A DNA stretch of 64,000 bases, taken from sequence record NZ_CP031419.1; one strand, 5' to 3'. Both the position numbers and the translations under genes were made by a program. Shown here piece by piece: positions 2,391 through 39,770 of the stretch (position 1 is its first letter; each line of letters starts with the position of its first letter). Below the pieces are notes generated by a model that searched no databases, had not been told where the DNA came from, and worked only from the letters and a program-made list of their open reading frames with translations. This DNA is from a plasmid.

Positions 2391-2660
2391 ATGTCGCACA
2401 TGGCTGGAGTAAAGCGCCTGTCTTACTCACGAAAGACGTACGGCTTCAAGCTGCATCAGAACGTCGACAAACTGATCGACGAGTTGGCCGCCGCCGAAAC
2501 TGGAGGCGACCGGAGCAGGTTGCTGACGTTGCTGGTGTGCGAGAGGCGCGGCGTCCCGGTCGACGAGATCCTCGTTCCCGATGAGAACGGCCAGGAGTCA
2601 CTACTCGACGGCACCACGAAAAAGGAGGTCACAAGGAAGCACCGACAATCGGTCGCATAG
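2391..2660 (+). CDS. small hypothetical protein
   Basis: MSHMAGVKRLSYSRKTYGFKLHQNVDKLIDELAAAE. GC3 about 72%. Lies downstream of a TTTAGATACA promoter box. Confidence 0.45.
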   Translation: MSHMAGVKRLSYSRKTYGFKLHQNVDKLIDELAAAETGGDRSRLLTLLVCERRGVPVDEILVPDENGQESLLDGTTKKEVTRKHRQSVA

Positions 2661-2857: not shown

Positions 2858-4735
2858 TTGCTGAAGGAACCCAGGGTCGAGGATACCGCACGCCCGAAAT
2901 CCGGTTCAACCGAAACCGCAGAGTGTGTCGAAAACTCACCCTCCTCAAACCGAAGCGGCAGCCCACCAGGGCCACCATCACAGCTCAGATTGCGCGAGTT
3001 GGACCATGTCCTCTACTCCGGTCCCTACGTTCTCATCGACGCCGACAACCATTCGCCGCGCCGGACCCGGTCTCTCGACAGGGCGTACGCCGCGATCGAC
3101 GCCGGCGAGGTTGCTACGGCTGGTGGGACTCTCCGGCCTGGCAACGTCGGCGCAGACATCGACCCCCTCCCAGAGCACGCTGTGCTCGGTGACGCGGTCG
3201 CCGAGGTACTCGTCGGGTGGCTCCACGATCAGGGCATCTTCTACCTGGCGCGTGAGTCCGGTCGGCCCGGAGGTCGGCACGTTGTAGGCGTCGGCGCATC
3301 GCCGGACCAGATGGAGGAATGGAACCGCCTGTGCGCCGATACCGCGCAAGCGTTCGGCGTTCCGGTCGACGACCGCTCTGGCGGCGTGCTGAGACTGCTC
3401 GCCGCCCCGCACCGCAAGGGATACTCCGCACCTGTTCTCGGCGGAACGCTGACGCTGAACGCCCCCACCGTGAGGACGCGAGCCAGCCGGGTCCGCGGTG
3501 CGCGGCCGGCGCGTCGACGGCCTTCGCCTAGCTCTCGCCCGGCGCCCGCTGGTCCCGACACCTCCCGCTCTGCGCGGGAGTACGGGCAAGTCTGCGCCAT
3601 GATCCGCCGTGGATGCACCCCTGCCGAGGCGTGGCGGGCCCAGAACCGCCCCGGATCGAAAGCTTCCGAGCGTGGAGAGCACCGGTGGCGGCGCTTCGTC
3701 TGGCTCGATGCCCACACCACCGTGTGCGCCGAGGAAGGGCTTACGCCGGAGCAAGCATGGCAGCGGGTCAGCGCAGCAAGTCCGGCCGTGTGCCGCAAGA
3801 TCGGACGGCGAGCATGGCAGCGCCTCTGGGAGCGTGCGGTCGAGCAGGCGGCCATTCAGCGGCCGCGCCGGCGGCGCCTGCCGTCCGACACTGTGAATAG
3901 GTCGACGGGAGCGGACAACGCGCGGATCGCCGCTGTCGCAGCGGGCCTCAAAACAGCACTCGATGCGACAGATCTGGGCGTGCGCCCCCAACGACGGAGG
4001 AACTGCGAGATTCTGCTGCTGAACCTCGCGCCGGTCTTCGTCAGGCGGGAGGGTTCAATCTCGGTGCGGGATATCGCTCTTCGTGCGGGCATCGACGTGA
4101 AAACGGTCCGGGTGTGCCGCGACCTACTCATCGCCCACGGACTTCTCGCGACGACGCACCACTACGCAGGCGGCGCGTCGGACAGCCACGCTTACGCGAT
4201 GGGACCAGCGGCCCGTCCTTACGTCGACGACGCAGTTTCGAAAATTTCCCCCACTTGTCCGAAGGACACCCCCCTCCCCCCAACGCCCTCCGGCCGCGCC
4301 GACCGCTCCCTCCTCCGCTCCCGCTTCCGCCGTGAACGCCACCACTGGCGCATCCGCTGCGCAGCCCTAGCCGACCTACCCCCTGGTGAATCCCTGGCCA
4401 GCAGCTCGTCACCCGCGGTGAAGGCGTACCGCTCGCTGCGCTACCAGCAGCGCTGGTGGCGCAGCCTGTCGTGCGACGACCAGGAGGCGCGTCGGGCTGC
4501 CAGGCGCGCGACACTCGAGGCGCTGACCCCCAGCGCCCGCTCGGCCTGGTTCAACTGGCTGGACCGGCGGAACAGCCTGGTGGCCGTGGTTGATCGGGCT
4601 GCCGCCGGAACCTTCACTTCGACCGACCGATCTGTCCTGGCTGCTGCGCCTCGAACTGTGCACACGGGGCTGCAAGACCCCAGCTGGCAGCCCTGCCGCC
4701 CTCGGAGCAGACAGCTCGTCTTGGCGGCGGCTTAG
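2858..4735 (+). CDS. putative replication initiator (primase-polymerase-like DxD motif plus C-terminal winged-helix domain)
   Basis: TTG start with GAAAGG RBS. LIDADN (hhhDhD-like) motif and a C-terminal wHTH-like segment (SVRDIALRAGIDVKTVRVCRDLLIAHGLL). Sits next to a repeat-rich candidate origin. Confidence 0.5.
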   Translation: MLKEPRVEDTARPKSGSTETAECVENSPSSNRSGSPPGPPSQLRLRELDHVLYSGPYVLIDADNHSPRRTRSLDRAYAAIDAGEVATAGGTLRPGNVGADIDPLPEHAVLGDAVAEVLVGWLHDQGIFYLARESGRPGGRHVVGVGASPDQMEEWNRLCADTAQAFGVPVDDRSGGVLRLLAAPHRKGYSAPVLGGTLTLNAPTVRTRASRVRGARPARRRPSPSSRPAPAGPDTSRSAREYGQVCAMIRRGCTPAEAWRAQNRPGSKASERGEHRWRRFVWLDAHTTVCAEEGLTPEQAWQRVSAASPAVCRKIGRRAWQRLWERAVEQAAIQRPRRRRLPSDTVNRSTGADNARIAAVAAGLKTALDATDLGVRPQRRRNCEILLLNLAPVFVRREGSISVRDIALRAGIDVKTVRVCRDLLIAHGLLATTHHYAGGASDSHAYAMGPAARPYVDDAVSKISPTCPKDTPLPPTPSGRADRSLLRSRFRRERHHWRIRCAALADLPPGESLASSSSPAVKAYRSLRYQQRWWRSLSCDDQEARRAARRATLEALTPSARSAWFNWLDRRNSLVAVVDRAAAGTFTSTDRSVLAAAPRTVHTGLQDPSWQPCRPRSRQLVLAAA

Positions 4736-5422
4736 GCTAGACGGGGGTACTGAGCGCGCGGCGGATCGTAACCGGCAGGTGGAGGTCCGATAGCTTTGGA
4801 AGAGCCGTGAGCCCCGGCACTATTGGGGCTCTGCGGGCTTGTGGCGGACACGGACGCGGCGAGGGTAACGACTGAACTCTGACACGGTCCAGCGGGTTGA
4901 GCAGTGCCGGTGTCGGGCTCCGTCGGCTGGGCCGTACGGCATACACACCGCGTGAGCAGGGAGGCCAGGCGACCGGACTGGGCCCAGCAGTGCGAGCCGC
5001 CTCGCGCCTCGAACCTGATGTGGCGGGTCGAACGGTTCGAGCTGCGTGCTCAAGAGCGAAACTTCCCACACAACTTCGGAGTTGGGCCGGTTAAGGAGTG
5101 TTCGGTGCCAGCGGAAACTTCCCACACCGCGAATATCGGGTAAACCACGGTTTACCCGAGCCCGGGTTGAATCCGGCGCTGACGTCAGCAGGTCGAAGAA
5201 CTTCACTACGTGCGTGAGGTCGCAGGCCAGAGTGGAAACTTCCCACACTGACCACAATCTCAAAACGTCCGTTTTGGAAGCGTGGCAGGGCCGCGTGAAC
5301 GGCAAGGATTCCGCCGAGCCCTTCCGGGTCGACCGGCGACCGAGGGCCTCAGCGCGTCGTCACAGTGACGAAATGGTTTGGGGGAAGGCAGTGGTTGGTA
5401 AACGCAGTCTCTCGGCCCAACT

Positions 5423-5716
5423 TCAGGTTTGGTTCGAGGGGACCTCGGGCATGCGTCCGTGTTCGTCGGGTCGCGGCACGCCGGCCGAATCGAGCCAGGC
5501 GTTGACGGCATCGTCTACGGTCTTAGAGATGACGTAGCCGCGCTTCTTGATCCAGTCGAGACGAGCGATCGTCGAAGCATGGAGTTGCGTCCCAAACTGC
5601 TTCTTGCCGACGCCTTTTCGAACCGGCAGCTCCACGGCCGCGGCTACTGAGGAATCTCCGCTGGTAGGTGTACTGCGCGAAGCATTCACGGTAACTCCTC
5701 CAATGAAGATGGACAT
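5423..5716 (-). CDS. small putative DNA-binding protein, divergent from parA
   Basis: KKQFGTQLHASTIARLDWIKKRGYVISKTVDDAVNAWL resembles small RHH/partition-regulator proteins. The N-terminal 25 codons have low GC3, so the start is uncertain. Confidence 0.35.
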   Translation of the reverse strand: MSIFIGGVTVNASRSTPTSGDSSVAAAVELPVRKGVGKKQFGTQLHASTIARLDWIKKRGYVISKTVDDAVNAWLDSAGVPRPDEHGRMPEVPSNQT

Positions 5717-5877
5717 CCGGTTCTTCAGTGCGGTTTCGGCGAATCGCCGCCGTAGCCGTTGACACTAGAAAACTATCTTATATCCTCTCTTACAGTCGCA
5801 GTTACCACCGCGGCGATTCTCAAACCCAAATCCGAAGTAGCCCACACGATGTGGGCGAAGTACACGGAGGTAGAACC

Positions 5878-6591
5878 ATGGCATACGTCGAGGTTGTTCT
5901 GAATCAGAAGGGTGGCGTCGGCAAGTCCACGCTCACCGTCAACCTGGCGGCCACCACCGCGGATGCGCTGTCGAGCTCGGAGCCGGGCACCATCTCTCCC
6001 GTTGCGGCGGTCAGCATCGACCCCCAGGGGTCGGCAGTCTGGTGGGCAGACCGAGTTGCGGATCTGCCGTTTCATATCGTCCAGGCGCACAATGACATTG
6101 AAGGACTGCGCGCTCTCCGGAACAGCAGCAGCATCGACCACTTCTACGTCGACACCCCAGGCTGGATCGGCCACGACGAAGATGACGAAGCAGCTGCCGA
6201 CCCTCTCGGCAAGGGGCCCGCGGCCGAGGCGCTGCGCGCTGTGCTCGAATCCGCTGACCACGTGATCGTGCCGATCGAGCCCGAGCCGCTCGCGTTCGAT
6301 CCGACGGCTCGGACAATCGAGAAGGTCATCAAGCCGCGTGGGTTGGATTTCCTTGTCGTAGTCAACAACTGGGACCCACGAGACGGTATGGCGGACTTGG
6401 AGCAGACCAAGGACTACGTCAAGGCCAACGGGTGGCCTCTCGCGAATACCGTGATCCGCCACTACAAGGTTCACGCACGTGCCGCAGCCGAAGGCACCGT
6501 GGTGACGGAGTACCCGCGCAACCGAGTTAGCTTGGAAGCGCGTGCCGATTTCAGCAAGCTCGCTCTTGAGCTCAAGGCCGGGGCTCGCTGA
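5878..6591 (+). CDS. parA: ParA partition ATPase
   Basis: Deviant Walker A motif VVLNQKGGVGKSTLTVNLA. GGAGG RBS before the ATG at 5878. 1-nt overlap with parB (TGATG). Confidence 0.9.
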   Translation: MAYVEVVLNQKGGVGKSTLTVNLAATTADALSSSEPGTISPVAAVSIDPQGSAVWWADRVADLPFHIVQAHNDIEGLRALRNSSSIDHFYVDTPGWIGHDEDDEAAADPLGKGPAAEALRAVLESADHVIVPIEPEPLAFDPTARTIEKVIKPRGLDFLVVVNNWDPRDGMADLEQTKDYVKANGWPLANTVIRHYKVHARAAAEGTVVTEYPRNRVSLEARADFSKLALELKAGAR

Positions 6592-7508
6592 TGGCCGGCC
6601 GGGGCGGTCGTGCGAACCTCGCCGACCTGGTTGGTTCCACTGGGAAGAACTCCACGGTCGACGGTGTGAACGCACGAGCCAGTTCGCCTGCAAAAGGGTC
6701 GACACCCGAGGTGGTGGTCAATGGGGCGCCACTGGAGATCAAGCTGGAAGATCTCGTGGCGAATCCGTTGAACCCGCGCGAGATCATGGATGTGGACGAT
6801 CTCGCTTCTATCATCGAGATTCAGCTGCAACCGGCATTGATCATCGGCCGAGAGGCGTACCTGAAGCTCTGGCCCGAGCTGGAGTCGGAGCTGGGTGATG
6901 CCAAGTATGTCGTCATCAACGGTTGCCGACGTCTGGAGGCTGCCCGAAAGTTCGGCCGGACGACCCTTGAGTGCGTTCGCAAAGACGAAGTCGCTGACTC
7001 GAGAGCGAGTCTGCGAGCGGCGTCCATCCGAGAGAACGTCGAACGGGAGAACCTCGACGTAATCGAAGAGGCGAAGGCCGTCGAGGCGTTGGTTTCGGAC
7101 TGCGAGGGCAACGGAGCGCGGGCCGGGCAGATCCTCGGCAAGACGAAAATGTGGGTGTCTCAACGCCGGGCGCTTCTAAAGCTCACACCGGAGCTTCAGG
7201 CGAAGCTTCGGGCGGGCGAGCTTGCTATCCGAGAAGCCCGAGAACTCGGCCGAGTTCCCGCTGAGGAACAGGTCGCCCGCTGGAAGGCTCAGCTGGAGAA
7301 GAAGGAGAGGGAGCAAGAGGGCGAGACGTCGGAGTCGAATACGTCGAGGCGCGATGTCGACACCGTGAAGATCGTCAAGACGCTCAAGAAGTGGGACGCG
7401 GACACTGCGGTTCTCGCCTCCGCGCTCTTCGTGCATCTCGATCGAGGTGGTGTGCACGAGTTGATCGAGCAGCTAAATCAGATGGCTACGTCGAAGGAAG
7501 GCGAGTAG
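6591..7508 (+). CDS. parB: ParB/Spo0J partition protein
   Basis: ParB box VVINGCRRLEAARKFG and an NPREIM motif. Followed by a perfect 14-bp hairpin. Confidence 0.9.
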   Translation: MAGRGGRANLADLVGSTGKNSTVDGVNARASSPAKGSTPEVVVNGAPLEIKLEDLVANPLNPREIMDVDDLASIIEIQLQPALIIGREAYLKLWPELESELGDAKYVVINGCRRLEAARKFGRTTLECVRKDEVADSRASLRAASIRENVERENLDVIEEAKAVEALVSDCEGNGARAGQILGKTKMWVSQRRALLKLTPELQAKLRAGELAIREARELGRVPAEEQVARWKAQLEKKEREQEGETSESNTSRRDVDTVKIVKTLKKWDADTAVLASALFVHLDRGGVHELIEQLNQMATSKEGE

Positions 7509-7535
7509 TTCCTCGTCCTCTGTGTGGGAAGTTTC

Positions 7536-7567
7536 GGGGCCGGTAGACCAATGGTCTACCGGCCCCG
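7536..7567 (+). terminator. hairpin after parB (GGGGCCGGTAGACC aatg GGTCTACCGGCCCC)
   Basis: Perfect 14-bp inverted repeat immediately 3' of the parB stop. Confidence 0.5.
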
Positions 7568-7835
7568 ACTCAATTCACGTGATCAATTCGTCTAGTCGCG
7601 CGATGCGCTCCATGCGGTAAACCGCGGTTTACCCGGAGTGTCCGTGACTGCTGCCGGTGGCCCGCCGTCTCTGGACCTTCCGTCGGGTCCGACGCATGGA
7701 ATGCGAGCTGTTGGCGAAACTTCCCACACAACCTCTTCGGCGAGTAAACCGCGGTTTACCGTATGGCCCCACACCCGGCCATCGGCCACAGGGCGAGAAC
7801 TTCCCACACAAACTTCAATGGGGGTAAACCGCGGT

Positions 7836-8786
7836 TTACCCCCACATCGCCAGCACTCGGTCGGCTTCCGCTTCTGCCGCATCGAGCAGGGCTTCGACGT
7901 CAGCCATGGATTCCACTGCGCGCCGCCGGGCTGCGAGACCATGGTCAAAGTGGTCGTTACCGAGGGGTGGGCACTGGCTCTCGAAGGTGGGGTCATGGAC
8001 GAGGTCGACGCCGTCGTCTCGACGGCGTTTCCGTGGGCGATGGGTTGGCACTCTGCCGAGAATGTGCGCGGCGGTGATTACCCCGATCGAGCCGGGGGTG
8101 AGTGGCGAGGGATCGAGAGCCGGGCTACCGTCCCGGTCGAGGGCAAAGAGCAGCGGGCCTGTGGTGTGGGCCGCAGCGGATATGCGCTCAGGGAGCGTCT
8201 CGCGCTCGAGGTGCTGCTCCAGGAGATAGGTCGCGGTCGGCCGGTGCACGACAGCGAGGACTGCCGCCCAACGTCGGAAAGCGGCGACGGGGCAGATCGC
8301 GCGGTCGTCAGCGGCACGAAGGACTACGAGGGGCCCGGCGCCGATCTCGATGCGGTCCGAGCGGATCGCGACCTCGGATCGGTCAAGTCCTGCGATGAGC
8401 GGAAAGGAGAGGCCGGAGCGGGCTAGGTGGAGCAAGACCGCGTCGCGGCGGCCGAATAGCCCCGCAGGCCAGCCCCAGGTAGGAAGGTTCGGCAGGGCCG
8501 CTTCGATTAGTCCGTGAAGCCGCTCGGTCCTGGCGGCGCGGGCAGGATTCATCAAGTTGCGGACGTATGGTGATCGGCCGGGTGCGGGAAATCCAGCATT
8601 GCGGTGCGCCCAGTTGATGGCACTGAGGCGGCCTCGTTGGGTTGACGGTGCCGCCGGCGCGGACGCCAGGTACTCGCCGACCGCGCTCGGGTCGGCGGGC
8701 ATCGGCGTATGGCCATGCACGGCGCACCAGTCAGCGAAGCGGGAGTAGTCATAGCGGTAGCGCGCGGTGAGGGCATCGCTCACCAT
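7836..8786 (-). CDS. tyrosine recombinase-like protein with truncated or degenerate C-terminus
   Basis: N-terminal SAM-like core-binding domain (YRYDYSRFADWCAVHG, QRGRLSAINWAHRNAG) and an Arg-I box (GLFGRRDAVLLHLA). The HxxR...Y catalytic tail is not recognisable. 7-nt overlap with the upstream integrase gene. Confidence 0.5.
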   Translation of the reverse strand: MVSDALTARYRYDYSRFADWCAVHGHTPMPADPSAVGEYLASAPAAPSTQRGRLSAINWAHRNAGFPAPGRSPYVRNLMNPARAARTERLHGLIEAALPNLPTWGWPAGLFGRRDAVLLHLARSGLSFPLIAGLDRSEVAIRSDRIEIGAGPLVVLRAADDRAICPVAAFRRWAAVLAVVHRPTATYLLEQHLERETLPERISAAAHTTGPLLFALDRDGSPALDPSPLTPGSIGVITAAHILGRVPTHRPRKRRRDDGVDLVHDPTFESQCPPLGNDHFDHGLAARRRAVESMADVEALLDAAEAEADRVLAMWG

Positions 8787-10072
8787 GGCAGCCGGGTGGC
8801 GGCGTTGCCGACCAGAGGAGCGTGTTCACGGGCATACACCCGGAGCATGGAGACTGACTTGTGTCGGGTTTGGCGCTGGATCTCGTAGTCGCTGGCGCCG
8901 AGTCGGTAGCCCTGCGTAACGAAGCCGCTGCGAAGGGAATGGCCCGCGAATAAGGCTGCGGTCTCTTTGTCGTACCCGACTGCCATTAATCGGCGGCGCA
9001 GCATATCGCCGACGGCTTCGGCCGTCAGCGCGGTAGATGCGATGTTCCCGTGGCGGTCGACCGCACGGAAGGCGGGGTTTCGCGAATTGGTGAGTTCGGG
9101 CCAGCGGCCGCGGCATACGTGCCGCTCGCAGTAGTCGTCGGTCTTGTTCAGCAGCTCCTGCACAGCAATGCGACCGCCGGCGTCGCGCGCTGCCACGAGG
9201 TCGAGCCAGCGCCGCCACGCGCACGGCGGGCATGTTGCGGGCTCGCTGCCCCGTGGGAGTGCGACCACCACTTCCTCTTCCTGCGATCCCTTCGAGATTC
9301 GCAGCCGGACGTGGAGGCCGTCGAGCCTGTGCGGAGTGATGTCCTCAAGCCAGCGCTCGGTCATCTCCGAGGCACGGAACGCGCCAGTGAACCCCATCAG
9401 CAGCAGTGCGGCGTCGCGGTGGGCGGCGATGCGCTGAGCGTCGTTCACCGCCTGGCGGCGGGCCTGGGTGACGAGCTCGCGCACGTCGTCGACGAGTACC
9501 GGTTCGGCGCGTTTGGGGCGGCGCTCGCCCTTCTCTCGGCAGGCCCTCCGGATGCCGGTCAGTACCTCGGCGACGATCCGTGCCGAGCCCGGATGCGGGT
9601 AGCCGGCCGCCCGGTGGCGGTCCCCGATCGCGGCAACCCATCGGGTGAGGGTCGGCGGAGCGTAGCGGCGTCGTCCTTTGCTATCGCGCAGTACGGCGGC
9701 TTCGCTGATGTAGAGGGCCACGGTGAGTGGATGGGCGGGCAGCGCCTGGTGCCCCTGCGTAGCGTTCACCGCGCACCAGCGCTCGAACCGCCGCCAGTCC
9801 GTCGCGTAGGAGCGAATCGTGTTGCGGGCCTGGGCGGTGGCGGTGGACTCCCCGATGAGCCGGAGATCCTCGCTTGACAGCGACGGCAGCGGCGCCAATG
9901 CCAATTCCGCGTCGGAGTCCACATCGGCAATTCCAAGAGGCGTCAGCACCTCCCGAATGCGGTCGATCTCCGCGTCGGCCAGCGCCGGTGCTGCCGCCTG
10001 GCGGTAGACCTCGATCTCCTTGCCGGTCATGTGGAGGAGCTTAGCCGTGTGGGCCGACATCCTCACTGGCAC
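8780..10072 (-). CDS. tyrosine-type site-specific recombinase/integrase
   Basis: RASEM Arg box, GHSLRSGFVTQ (HxxR) and RHKSVSMLRVY with the catalytic Tyr. Confidence 0.85.
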   Translation of the reverse strand: MPVRMSAHTAKLLHMTGKEIEVYRQAAAPALADAEIDRIREVLTPLGIADVDSDAELALAPLPSLSSEDLRLIGESTATAQARNTIRSYATDWRRFERWCAVNATQGHQALPAHPLTVALYISEAAVLRDSKGRRRYAPPTLTRWVAAIGDRHRAAGYPHPGSARIVAEVLTGIRRACREKGERRPKRAEPVLVDDVRELVTQARRQAVNDAQRIAAHRDAALLLMGFTGAFRASEMTERWLEDITPHRLDGLHVRLRISKGSQEEEVVVALPRGSEPATCPPCAWRRWLDLVAARDAGGRIAVQELLNKTDDYCERHVCRGRWPELTNSRNPAFRAVDRHGNIASTALTAEAVGDMLRRRLMAVGYDKETAALFAGHSLRSGFVTQGYRLGASDYEIQRQTRHKSVSMLRVYAREHAPLVGNAATRLPW

Positions 10073-12129: not shown

Positions 12130-12398
12130 ACATCTAGTTATACAGCTATTGCGACTTGAGCATTGATTCTGGCCAGCGCCGAATGCCCCACCGAGCGTGG
12201 CGCACGGCTCGCGGCCCAGATACAGCCGTGCCCCGGGCGGCATGCTCAGCAGAGGCGGACCCGGGGCGTACGGGAACACGGTAGGCGGCCCGAGAACTTC
12301 CGGTCAACCTAATTTTCTAGCTGCGGCCCCGCAATTCAAAACGGCCGTTTTGGAATGCCGGGCGACCCGCTGGCCCGCGGCCGGGCGGGACCCCGGGG

Positions 12399-21042: not shown

Positions 21043-21747
21043 TCAGAGCGGGAACAGCGACGGTTGGGCGTTGGCATTGCCAGTCCAGGACAAAACGTTG
21101 GGGAGGTTCGCGTCCGGGGCGAAGGTGAGGTAGGTCCCATCGACACTGTCGCAGCCGATCGCAGTCGCGTAGTCATAGCGGCGGCGCGAGTTCACCCGGC
21201 CCATATGGACCCACTTGCCGAGGCTCGAGGCGACCGCGGCGAGGTTCGCCGCCGCCGGGCCGAGCTTCCAGGCGGTGTCCCCGGCGAGGAACAGACAGTC
21301 AATCTCGTCCCACGGGTCCCAGGTGTCGAACTCCATGAAATTCTGGGCCGCGAAGGCGACGGGAAACCCGAGATCGCGGATGCGCCGCAGCATCGGCAGA
21401 GAGCGGGCGAGCGTGGCGAAGTGGTCGCCGACAACGTCGGGCGCCACCACGAACAGACAGCGGTCGGCGTGCGGGCGCAGCCGGCCGAGCCAGTTCAGGT
21501 AGGCGTCGTCACCGGGATAGGCCCCGCCGAACACCCCGTTGTCGGCACACCACAGCGGGTAGTCAGCGCTCAGGCGGTTGCCTTGAGCGGGAGTCATGAT
21601 CGCGCCCAGTTCCTCGGCGCGGATTCGGTCGCGGATCGCGGGTGTGCTGGGTGGGGTGAGGTAGAGCGGAGCGCCAGGAGTGCAGTCGTGCCAGCGCTCG
21701 GCCGCCCAGCTCTCATTAAAACGTTCGTTTTGGTTATCGGCAGGCAT
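21043..21747 (-). CDS. hypothetical protein
   Basis: 234 aa, unbiased. A CAAAACGNNCGTTTTG-type palindrome lies in codons 5-10. Confidence 0.55.
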   Translation of the reverse strand: MPADNQNERFNESWAAERWHDCTPGAPLYLTPPSTPAIRDRIRAEELGAIMTPAQGNRLSADYPLWCADNGVFGGAYPGDDAYLNWLGRLRPHADRCLFVVAPDVVGDHFATLARSLPMLRRIRDLGFPVAFAAQNFMEFDTWDPWDEIDCLFLAGDTAWKLGPAAANLAAVASSLGKWVHMGRVNSRRRYDYATAIGCDSVDGTYLTFAPDANLPNVLSWTGNANAQPSLFPL

Positions 21748-39488: not shown

Positions 39489-39770
39489 AGGCTCTTCCTT
39501 CCTCTCGACGGCGTCGCAGGCTGGGTCGCACCTGACCGCAGCCGCAGGGTTCCACTGTATCTAAAGGTGCGTCCACACCTAATGGTCCGAGTACCCCCGC
39601 CGAGCCTTTCGGATCTATCGCACCATTAGATACATTAGAGGCATACCAAGTTTACCTGCGGCAACCGTCGCAGGTGAAACCGCAAAACGGATGTTTTAGA
39701 TACATCAGCTACAACGGAACCATTGGGGCTGGTGACCATCGCCGCCCCGCCGCCGAACAAGGAGGCGAAC

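Follow-up and report, generated by a model that had tools for sequence, protein, structure and literature searches.

Predicted parS palindromes and a lineage-restricted 14-mer box flank parAB on a pNF1-like Nocardia plasmid

Introduction

Do the repeats that flank a plasmid partition operon mark a centromere, a replication origin, or both? This question is raised by a 64,000-nucleotide stretch of the plasmid record NZ_CP031419.1 (in its entirety, the window), in which copies of a 14-mer and of a palindrome lie between a Rep-like gene and parAB, and again downstream of parB. An earlier note on this DNA had taken both repeats for a single composite centromere, whose upstream cluster might double as iterons of the replication origin (oriV). 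The analysis presented here argues for two interleaved cis-elements instead: palindromes serving as parS sites of the plasmid's own ParB, and 14-mer boxes for a second, replicon-linked factor, most likely the replication protein (Rep). We give this overall reading a probability of about 0.45; if it is right, the box may link partition to the plasmid's replication protein.

By its matches, the window belongs to a pNF1-like Nocardia plasmid. Four circular Nocardia plasmids, N. farcinica pNF1 among them, match the region at 87–89% nucleotide identity and are annotated with a hypothetical protein, a small hypothetical protein, ParA, ParB and two recombinases; among contigs, the nearest one found belongs to N. 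neocaledoniensis, whose ParB is 99% identical. For comparison, we used 80 loci with ParB homologues of 43–99% identity from Nocardia, Rhodococcus, Mycobacterium, Gordonia and relatives, 77 of which could be scored. Loci are numbered from L001 onward, and those recurring below include L007 (Nocardia sp. 004), L088 (N. asteroides), L090 (N. otitidiscaviarum), L092 (Nocardia sp. R16R-3T), L098 (N. tenerifensis), L099 (a metagenomic contig) and L100 (N. brasiliensis). A complete relative plasmid of 142.5 kb served for counts of site confinement and for GC skew.

Palindromes on both sides of parAB as predicted parS sites

The partition operon consists of parA (5878–6591, plus strand; 237 amino acids [aa]), encoding a small Walker-type ATPase without an N-terminal helix-turn-helix (HTH), and parB (6591–7508, plus strand; 305 aa), which follows it in one operon, its start overlapping the end of parA at 6591. 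ParB matches PF17762 (HTH_ParB; E 7e-11, 42.6 bits against a cut-off of 22.6), falls just below the cut-off of TIGR00180 (57.4 versus 58.45 bits), also matches Noc in NCBIfam, and shows a weak ParB_N match under the Pfam cut-off (17.8 bits). A profile search of the PDB returned ParB, Spo0J and Noc structures at 1e-14 to 1e-15; in this sequence-level test, P1 ParB was not among the 12 hits. The motifs of the cytidine triphosphate (CTP) switch—N61-P62-R63, N110-G111-x-R113-R114-x-x-A117 and E148-N149-x-x-R152—are invariant in 24 homologues. For ParA, the Pfam families CbiA and AAA_31 score above cut-off and the NCBIfam family ParA_partition reaches 85.7 bits, below its equivalog cut-off of 180. 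By such sequence-level tests, the locus is a ParABS system with a chromosomal, CTPase-type ParB.

The palindrome GTAAACCGCGGTTTAC occurs in four copies, one upstream of parA and three downstream of parB, and matches to GGTAAACCGCGGTTTACC at 5139, 7616, 7743 and 7823 compare with 0.01 expected in the window. The upstream site, GGGTAAACCACGGTTTACCC, spans 5138–5157, its 18-mer (5139–5156) carrying one mismatch (CCACGG). Downstream, a perfect 18-mer with no 14-mer beside it (7616–7633) is followed by a site with one mismatch in the 18-mer around a perfect 16-mer (7743–7760 and 7744–7759, respectively) and by a 26-bp perfect palindrome (7819–7844) that encloses a perfect 18-mer (7823–7840) and overlaps the stop codon of a minus-strand recombinase gene. 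All four palindromes of the earlier note are thus real, but the one it placed at 7606–7623 lies about 10 nt further on.

The expectation that the sites recur in related plasmids was borne out. A palindrome of the family nnnnACCGCGGTnnnn, with the core ACCGCGGT and AT-rich symmetric flanks, stands beside parAB in 72 of the 77 homologous loci, upstream of parA in 66 and on both sides of the operon in 15. Neither the window nor the complete relative carries the palindrome anywhere but at the par locus, where all 5 copies of the relative lie. Both intergenic regions have diverged in the four ~88%-identical plasmids, yet their 14-mers and palindromes are invariant; these plasmids have one palindrome more than the window.

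Three flank bases of the palindrome covary with the residue that precedes the invariant Trp of the ParB recognition helix (W-V/I-S-Q-R). Gly at this position goes with TTT (parS TTTACCGCGGTAAA; 40 of 43 loci), Ala with TTA (TTAACCGCGGTTAA; 26 of 29 loci), and Met, as Lys-Met-Trp, with TAA (TAAACCGCGGTTTA) in every member of the 14-mer-bearing clade described below. In the ParB of the window, this residue is Met187. Covariation of this kind is predicted for cognate parS sites, whereas a mere terminator would show none. Together with the 77-locus comparison, it upholds the earlier assignment of parS to both sides of parAB, and we consider it highly probable from the sequences that the palindromes are ParB centromere sites, ParB binding being predicted. 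The Gly/Ala/Met to TTT/TTA/TAA correspondence over 77 loci would then amount to a natural specificity code for CTPase-type ParB. ParB dimers would recognize the palindromes through their HTH. ParB proteins of this family are loaded at parS as CTP-dependent clamps, and the CTP-switch motifs, along with this established family knowledge, suggest the same here: clamps loaded at the palindrome would build a partition complex that the small ParA ATPase moves.

Behind parB, a perfect 35-nt hairpin (7534–7568) abuts an inverted 14-mer. Its centre, GGTAGACCAATGGTCTACC, is a degenerate parS-like sequence, and its RNA fold is very stable (−39.4 kcal/mol, z-score −5.3); several other palindromes are weak hairpins, that at 7743 having a z-score of 0.04. 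The homologous hairpin in L007, L092 and L098 bears a true parS core, and across the loci the first parS past the parB stop often sits within a much longer perfect palindrome (arms typically 11–22 nt, in one case 64 nt), the outer arms of which vary between lineages. Hairpin 7534–7568 is probably the parAB terminator, which in many lineages doubles as parS; in this lineage, it would act mainly as a terminator with a decayed parS core.

Some Rhodococcus plasmids carry palindrome arrays of 7–21 copies, ~100 nt apart. In L040, L065, L057, L058, L039 and L044, we counted 11–21 parS palindromes upstream of parA (positions 50–2600), and 3–5 in Nocardia. A few parS-like matches (AGGTTYACCGCGGTRAAsGA at L084:796, L059:987, L045:356 and L077:1823) fall in the coding sequence of the Walker-A motif (KGGVGK..TAVN) of other ParA genes. 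Since ACCGCGGTnAAC arises from these codons (T-A-V-N), isolated matches in coding sequence should not be taken for parS.

The 14-mer as an element apart from the ParB site

The 14-mer GAAACTTCCCACAC is exact at 5058, 5114, 5235 and 7716 on the plus strand and at 7522 on the minus strand. A sixth copy at 7796 reads AGAACTTCCCACAC and keeps the 12-mer core AACTTCCCACAC, exact in all six, from 7798; by shuffling, 0.13 matches would be expected in the window. Six copies with one inverted had been claimed before, and only the starts given as 7717 and 7795 needed a shift of one position each. Copy 1 (5058–5071) is free-standing with no palindrome adjacent, copy 2 (5114–5127) ends 11 nt before parS—both are invariant in the four related plasmids—and copy 3 (5235–5248) lies at the same distance, 12 nt, before a second type of palindrome, P2 (CAAAACGTCCGTTTTG; 5261–5276). 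The inverted copy (7522–7535) directly follows the parB stop, and its position and orientation are kept in L001–7, L090, L092, L098 and L100. The remaining copies (7716–7729 and 7796–7809, plus strand) each precede parS by 13 nt. The earlier note had a 14-mer shortly before a palindrome in three cases, and the gaps to the 18-mer indeed measure 11, 13 and 13 nt. The two downstream units emerged from repeat analysis as an 80-nt repeat of 43 nt; a BLAST search of plasmids with a two-unit stretch matched the four Nocardia plasmids already known and no others.

In the locus set, the 14-mer core is limited to one clade: the pNF1 group, L090, L092, L007, L098, L100 and L099. Within this clade it is kept at 12/12 or 11/12 positions despite identities of 65–99% for ParB and 52–92% for the 625-aa Rep-like protein, and spacers do not align; 12/12 cores occur even in lineages with ParB at 65–69% and Rep at 52–76% identity. 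All seven copies on the 142-kb relative fall within the two clusters. Nineteen of 25 evaluable copies, from six lineages, start 22–28 nt before the 14-nt centre of a palindrome, and the coupling of 14-mer and palindrome is therefore real. The partner can be of parS type, P2 or the post-parB hairpin—the always-inverted copy after parB included—and the gap amounts to 12–14 nt across lineages, with free spacer sequence. The pairing with P2 is conserved in L006, L090, L092 and L100.

The two elements also occur apart. Free-standing 14-mers lie downstream of rep in L098, L099 and L007; those of L098 are far from any palindrome and of mixed orientation, and in L099 a copy sits ~400 nt downstream of rep with no palindrome. 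Box-less parS copies are found at 7616 in the window and as extra copies in relatives. In ParB relatives at ≤60% identity (L008–L011 and all others), the palindromes are bare; the 14-mer is absent from those without a rep homologue nearby. Because of these free-standing boxes, box-less parS copies and bare palindromes, the sequence comparison sets the 14-mer apart as an element that is neither part of the ParB HTH site nor required family-wide. A single composite centromere was thus too strong a claim for a box that is clade-restricted and can stand without a palindrome. A metagenome scan with the exact 14-mer gave at least 120 single matches, none of them with a palindrome among the matches listed, which we regard as chance matches.

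Companions of parS are, however, not unique to the 14-mer clade. In a Rhodococcus koreensis/jostii-type clade, ATGTCCGTTTTGTCCG directly adjoins parS (TTGTTTACCGCGGTAAACAA) on one side or both (L015, L017, L020, L022, L026, L029 and L034; at ~2900–3130 and 4900 in each), and in L022 parS and its companion motifs form a 128-bp perfect palindrome. The Rhodococcus motif and the P2 palindrome of the window have GTCCGTTTTG in common. With such motifs, a second DNA-binding activity linked to par still merits consideration.

A primase-polymerase as candidate replication protein

The gene preceding the upstream cluster (2858–4735, plus strand) encodes a 625-aa protein without a Pfam or NCBIfam hit, for which a primase-polymerase (Prim-Pol) N-domain followed by a winged helix is predicted. 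Invariant in 25 homologues are DxD (D100, D102), SGRPGGRH (134–141; S134-G135-R136-x-G138-x-x-H141) and PHR (184–186). In the AlphaFold2 (AF2) model, confidence (pLDDT) exceeds 90 over residues 42–200 of the N-domain and is ~90 over 351–448. The top 13 Foldseek matches in the PDB are all Prim-Pol domains of the archaeo-eukaryotic primase (AEP) type (LigD polymerase, CAPP, Prim-PolC); they are modest, with E from 6e-3 (LigD polymerase) to 8e-2 and TM-scores (TMt) up to 0.54 (CAPP 0.5). The central domain has MarR-like structural matches at E 0.1–0.4 and an HTH_29 match below cut-off (E 0.0017).

A small open reading frame (ORF) of ~86 aa upstream (2400–2660, plus strand) is conserved with rep in L001–5, L007, L090, L092, L087 and L088. 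Pfam gives a weak RHH_1 match for the L099 homologue, and an Amycolatopsis homologue is annotated 'RepB family', making a ribbon-helix-helix (RHH) partner of Rep a possibility. No other annotated Rep was found on the whole 142-kb relative. As the raw cumulative GC-skew minimum depends on rotation, we used a detrended version, which on this relative places the global minimum at 80707, where rep has its 3′ end, with the upstream cluster ~350 nt away; in the window, the cumulative minimum lies at 4703. The label 'Rep-like' thus gained from both the fold and the skew minimum. Given the modelled fold, the small upstream gene, the lack of another annotated Rep and the skew minimum, we consider the protein a credible replication initiator and 4735–5423 a credible origin region. 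With its ~25 homologues in Nocardia, Amycolatopsis and Longimycelium, it may represent an undescribed plasmid Rep family, so that this un-annotated primase-polymerase becomes a candidate for a new type of Rep in Nocardia plasmids.

The upstream cluster starts 323 nt past the rep stop, an arrangement shared by L007, L090, L092, L098, L099 and L100. It lies between the Rep-like gene and parA, as the earlier note had it, except that a minus-strand ORF (5423–5689) intervenes; because this ORF separates it from parA, the cluster sits between convergent genes and outside the parA promoter. Between the boxes and this ORF lies a further conserved sequence, the X element (GTCACAGTGACGAAATGG; 5359–5376, plus strand), which is identical at 18/18 positions in L007, L090 and L092 and at 17/18 in L098 and L100, with ParB identities of 65–69% in some of these. 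Its palindromic core also occurs downstream of the 43%-identical rep homologue of L088, a locus in which rep is paired with an unrelated 533-aa ParB; there, the X-element core and a sequence matching the box inversely at 10/12 positions lie within 250 nt of the rep stop.

Candidate readers of the 14-mer

Taken together, these data suggest that the 14-mer is a lineage-restricted asymmetric box read by another sequence-specific factor, one that accompanies the pNF1-type replicon. Our tentative first candidate for this factor, named with clearly less than even confidence, is the winged helix of the primase-polymerase Rep. The upstream cluster (5058–5376), with its three boxes, single parS, P2 palindrome and X element, would then be an origin or replication-control region, and the downstream boxes might titrate or pair with it, or bring Rep beside ParB. 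If the companion box is indeed an initiator or adaptor site, replication control would be hard-wired to partition.

Several observations weigh against this assignment. The tight 12–14-nt gap to the palindromes argues for cooperation with ParB over an independent origin function, and the Rhodococcus clade, which lacks this rep, has its own parS-abutting motif, favouring a par-linked second activity. Synteny within the clade extends to Rep, ParB, the small ORFs and the recombinases alike, so that co-occurrence does not set Rep apart from the others. No box was found at seven loci whose rep homologues (37–42% identity) lie convergent with parB. GC skew is noisy on a mosaic plasmid, and its maximum is not opposite the minimum. 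Nor do the boxes form classical iterons, that is, three or more direct repeats of ~17–22 bp in regular helical phase: they are 12–14 nt long, of mixed orientation and present on both sides of parAB, with irregular spacing (53–121 nt; from start to start, 56 and 121 nt in the window; 104, 91, 116 and 121–126 nt in other lineages). The intergenic regions of the window contain no DnaA box within one mismatch, and 5040–5280 contains no sharper AT-rich block (45–60% GC against a background of 64–69%). Of the proposal that the upstream cluster serves as oriV iterons, the position next to rep thus remains, and the iterons in the classical sense do not.

The 14-mer might alternatively be the operator of a small plasmid-encoded protein that acts with ParB at parS in the style of KorA and KorB of RK2, and that traps, positions or limits ParB clamps or regulates transcription through the region. 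The RHH-like 88-aa protein (5423–5689) and the small RHH-like protein upstream of rep are candidates, both ORFs being conserved; RHH proteins of the omega and ParG families are able to bind short asymmetric boxes in either orientation, and a fixed gap with free spacer sequence, like the separate parS-abutting motif of Rhodococcus, would suit such a partner. We nevertheless hold this to be somewhat unlikely: the divergent ORF is also present in L016 and L086, which lack the 14-mer, the RHH assignment (a weak RHH_1 hit in a homologue of one, RHH-like topology in the other) is not significant, the boxes lie outside promoters with the upstream cluster between convergent genes, and free-standing boxes exist. 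If, instead, ParB itself read the 14-mer with a surface other than its HTH, as P1 ParB reads box B of its parS through the dimerisation domain, 14-mer and palindrome would constitute one bipartite centromere. The conserved offset on one side of a symmetric site would fit, as would the restriction of boxes to par-flanking clusters, the presence of a box with each ParB that has Met before Trp, and, again, the Rhodococcus motif. This is unlikely, however, as palindromes are bare in most of the ParB family—even for ParBs that are 60% identical and closely alike in the C-terminal domain—parS copies lack a box (7616; extras in relatives), boxes lack a palindrome (5058; L098; L099), and both orientations at similar distance are hard to reconcile with one rigid protein geometry; moreover, the ParB profile matches chromosomal-type ParB and Noc, with P1 ParB not among the hits. 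On the unlikely side, too, is a combined form in which the 14-mer by parS is the box of the primase-polymerase initiator or of a dedicated adaptor, the two sites forming a bipartite unit ~2.5 helical turns apart. If true, the partition complex would, on each side of parAB, be physically coupled to control of the origin or of copy number, and related ParB lineages (such as Rhodococcus, with ATGTCCGTTTTGTCCG) would have evolved boxes of their own, making composite centromeres a general, undescribed feature of this large family of ParB proteins on actinobacterial plasmids.

Further readings are more remote. Hairpin and 14-mer could be single-strand initiation (ssi) signals for the primase-polymerase, with the conserved stretch GTGTGGGAAGTT on the other strand, much as RepB′ of RSF1010 recognizes ssiA and ssiB for priming; an AEP-type Rep, a constant box-to-stem distance and the many palindromes with extended lineage-specific arms and stable hairpins speak for it. 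Yet ssi sites come as one pair, whereas a plasmid here has at least six units spread over the two flanks of parAB; the ParB covariation accounts for the conserved stem core, several palindromes are weak hairpins (7743), and free-standing boxes have no hairpin, which renders this improbable. A multimer-resolution site by par, in which the two neighbouring tyrosine recombinases bind the 14-mers as accessory (arm-type) sites, would explain why box and recombinase pair keep their synteny across the clade and why direct and inverted copies adjoin the recombinase genes. We rate it as highly improbable: a closely spaced inverted pair that could form a crossover core is absent, recombination between direct copies that lie 2.4 kb apart, one on each side of parAB, would delete the operon, and loci with recombinase homologues at 35–47% identity lack the box. 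Finally, the palindromes might be nothing but transcription terminators or structural hairpins, in keeping with the long perfect hairpin that often surrounds the first post-parB palindrome and with the high stability of 7534–7568. This is barely credible, given that an 8-bp core with AT-rich flanks is conserved across genera where a hairpin needs complementarity only, that flank bases covary with a ParB recognition-helix residue, that sites precede parA and can number up to 21 in an array, and that some copies make poor hairpins. Other or host factors are further candidate binders of the 14-mer.

A promoter role for the 14-mer and palindrome was rejected: the units point into convergent gene ends, and the sole sigma-70-like site of the region is elsewhere (5759–5786).

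Relation to known partition systems

The locus most resembles chromosomal ParABS (Spo0J/ParB), sharing ParB_N CTP motifs, HTH_ParB, a C-terminal dimerisation region, a small Walker ParA in the operon, and 16-bp perfect palindromes in few copies adjoining it. In contrast to the chromosomal system, the site (GTAAACCGCGGTTTAC) is unrelated to tGTTTCACGTGAAACa, the sites flank the operon on both sides with one in the terminator hairpin, and an asymmetric box accompanies most of them; for this ParB, CTP binding and sliding are predicted from its motifs. P1 and P7 parS, composed of box A heptamers, box B hexamers and an IHF site, likewise combine a palindromic element with an asymmetric second box at a defined position, and in P1 the second box sets lineage specificity. 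However, our ParB is not P1-type by profile search, and its companion box is 12–14 nt rather than 6 nt long, separated by 12–14 nt rather than adjacent, and also found alone and inverted. RK2 KorB is a ParB homologue with an AT-flanked, GC-centred palindrome (OB, TTTAGCSGCTAAA) near the site of a second small protein (the KorA operator); KorA and KorB cooperate, their operators lying at a short fixed distance. KorB sites, by contrast, occur plasmid-wide at promoters, whereas the palindrome here is restricted to the par locus with clusters outside promoters; unlike the KorA operator, the 14-mer is not a palindrome. The resemblance to P1 parS and to KorB/KorA is thus one of concept only, their defining features being absent.

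Iterons of P1 (incC/incA) and F (incB/incC) are, like the boxes, repeated asymmetric elements near rep that recur at a second place beside par, and copy control by titration or pairing is a possible further likeness. The boxes differ in being shorter, fewer, irregular and of mixed orientation, in flanking parAB instead of rep, and in having no DnaA boxes found with them; moreover, this Rep is a primase-polymerase and not a RepA/RepE-type winged-helix dimer. In Vibrio cholerae chromosome 2, parS lies beside initiator-binding sites and the partition protein ParB2 and the initiator RctB influence each other; proteins and sites are unrelated to ours, and the present case is known from sequence alone. 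Among actinobacterial extrachromosomal elements, RedRock-type mycobacteriophages have parS-L and parS-R clusters on both sides of parAB, with the origin just upstream of parA, and an interplay of parABS with copy number has been reported (PMC7157519). Both cases combine centromere clusters that flank parAB with replication functions directly before it, but RedRock parS consists of eight direct 8-bp repeats per cluster, not palindromes, the origin of most such phages is RNA-based, and the RepA proteins are unrelated (PMC7157519).

In the full-text literature, of which our coverage was incomplete so that an earlier description is possible, we did not find the site sequences or a parS of Nocardia or Rhodococcus plasmids. 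The predicted sites would define a centromere for pNF1-type plasmids of clinical Nocardia and for a large family of Rhodococcus, Mycobacterium and Nocardia plasmids, of use in vector design, incompatibility typing and plasmid curing.

Further elements of the region

The minus-strand ORF divergent from parA (5423–5689; 88 aa) is conserved in the clade and in N. salmonicida, with homologues in L016 and L086. Its AF2 model (pLDDT 60) comprises an extended segment and two helices, with a ParG-like C-terminal pattern (KKRGYVISKTVDDAVNAWL), so that an RHH-like topology is suggested but unproven. It had no match in Pfam, PHROGs, NCBIfam or a PDB profile search, and hhalign against a ParG sequence was not significant. 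Beyond parB, two tyrosine-recombinase-like genes on the minus strand (7836–8786, 316 aa; 8780–10072, 430 aa) are syntenic throughout the clade. A scan of 4500–8000 against Rfam gave one chance microRNA-like match, on the palindromes.

The only sigma-70-like site in 4700–7950 is the parA promoter-like sequence TTGACA-16-TATCCT (5759–5786, plus strand), which is free of parS and conserved in L007 and L098. It is bracketed at 5738–5751 and 5810–5819 by GGCGAATCGCCGCC and GCGGCGATTC (inverted GAATCGCCGC), both conserved in the same two loci. These bracketing elements, with no parS inside, may be an autoregulatory operator.

Inside rep, the codons AAA ATT TCC CCC ACT TGT (4241–4258) resemble the 14-mer (AATTTCCCCCAC). 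Of these, TCC CCC ACT encodes a conserved SPT peptide and shows no nucleotide change in homologues of 43% identity; the local choice of codons is not striking enough to prove a cis-element, and this stretch (4243) stays a weak lead.

Near 12.3 kb, the earlier note had seen a related box-and-palindrome pair (12291–12354). The palindrome, a perfect P2 (CAAAACGGCCGTTTTG; 12337–12352), is real, isolated and conserved in relatives, but its supposed partner GAGAACTTCC, at a distance of 36 nt, shares only 7 of 12 core bases with the 14-mer and has the sequence GAGAACCGGC in a relative; we rejected it as a chance resemblance, and with it the pair. P2-type palindromes (AAAACGnnCGTTTT) occupy four sites in the window (5261, 12337–12352, 21718–21731 and 39684–39697) against 0.00 expected, two of them at gene starts, and in this dispersed arrangement look like the operator of a plasmid regulator.

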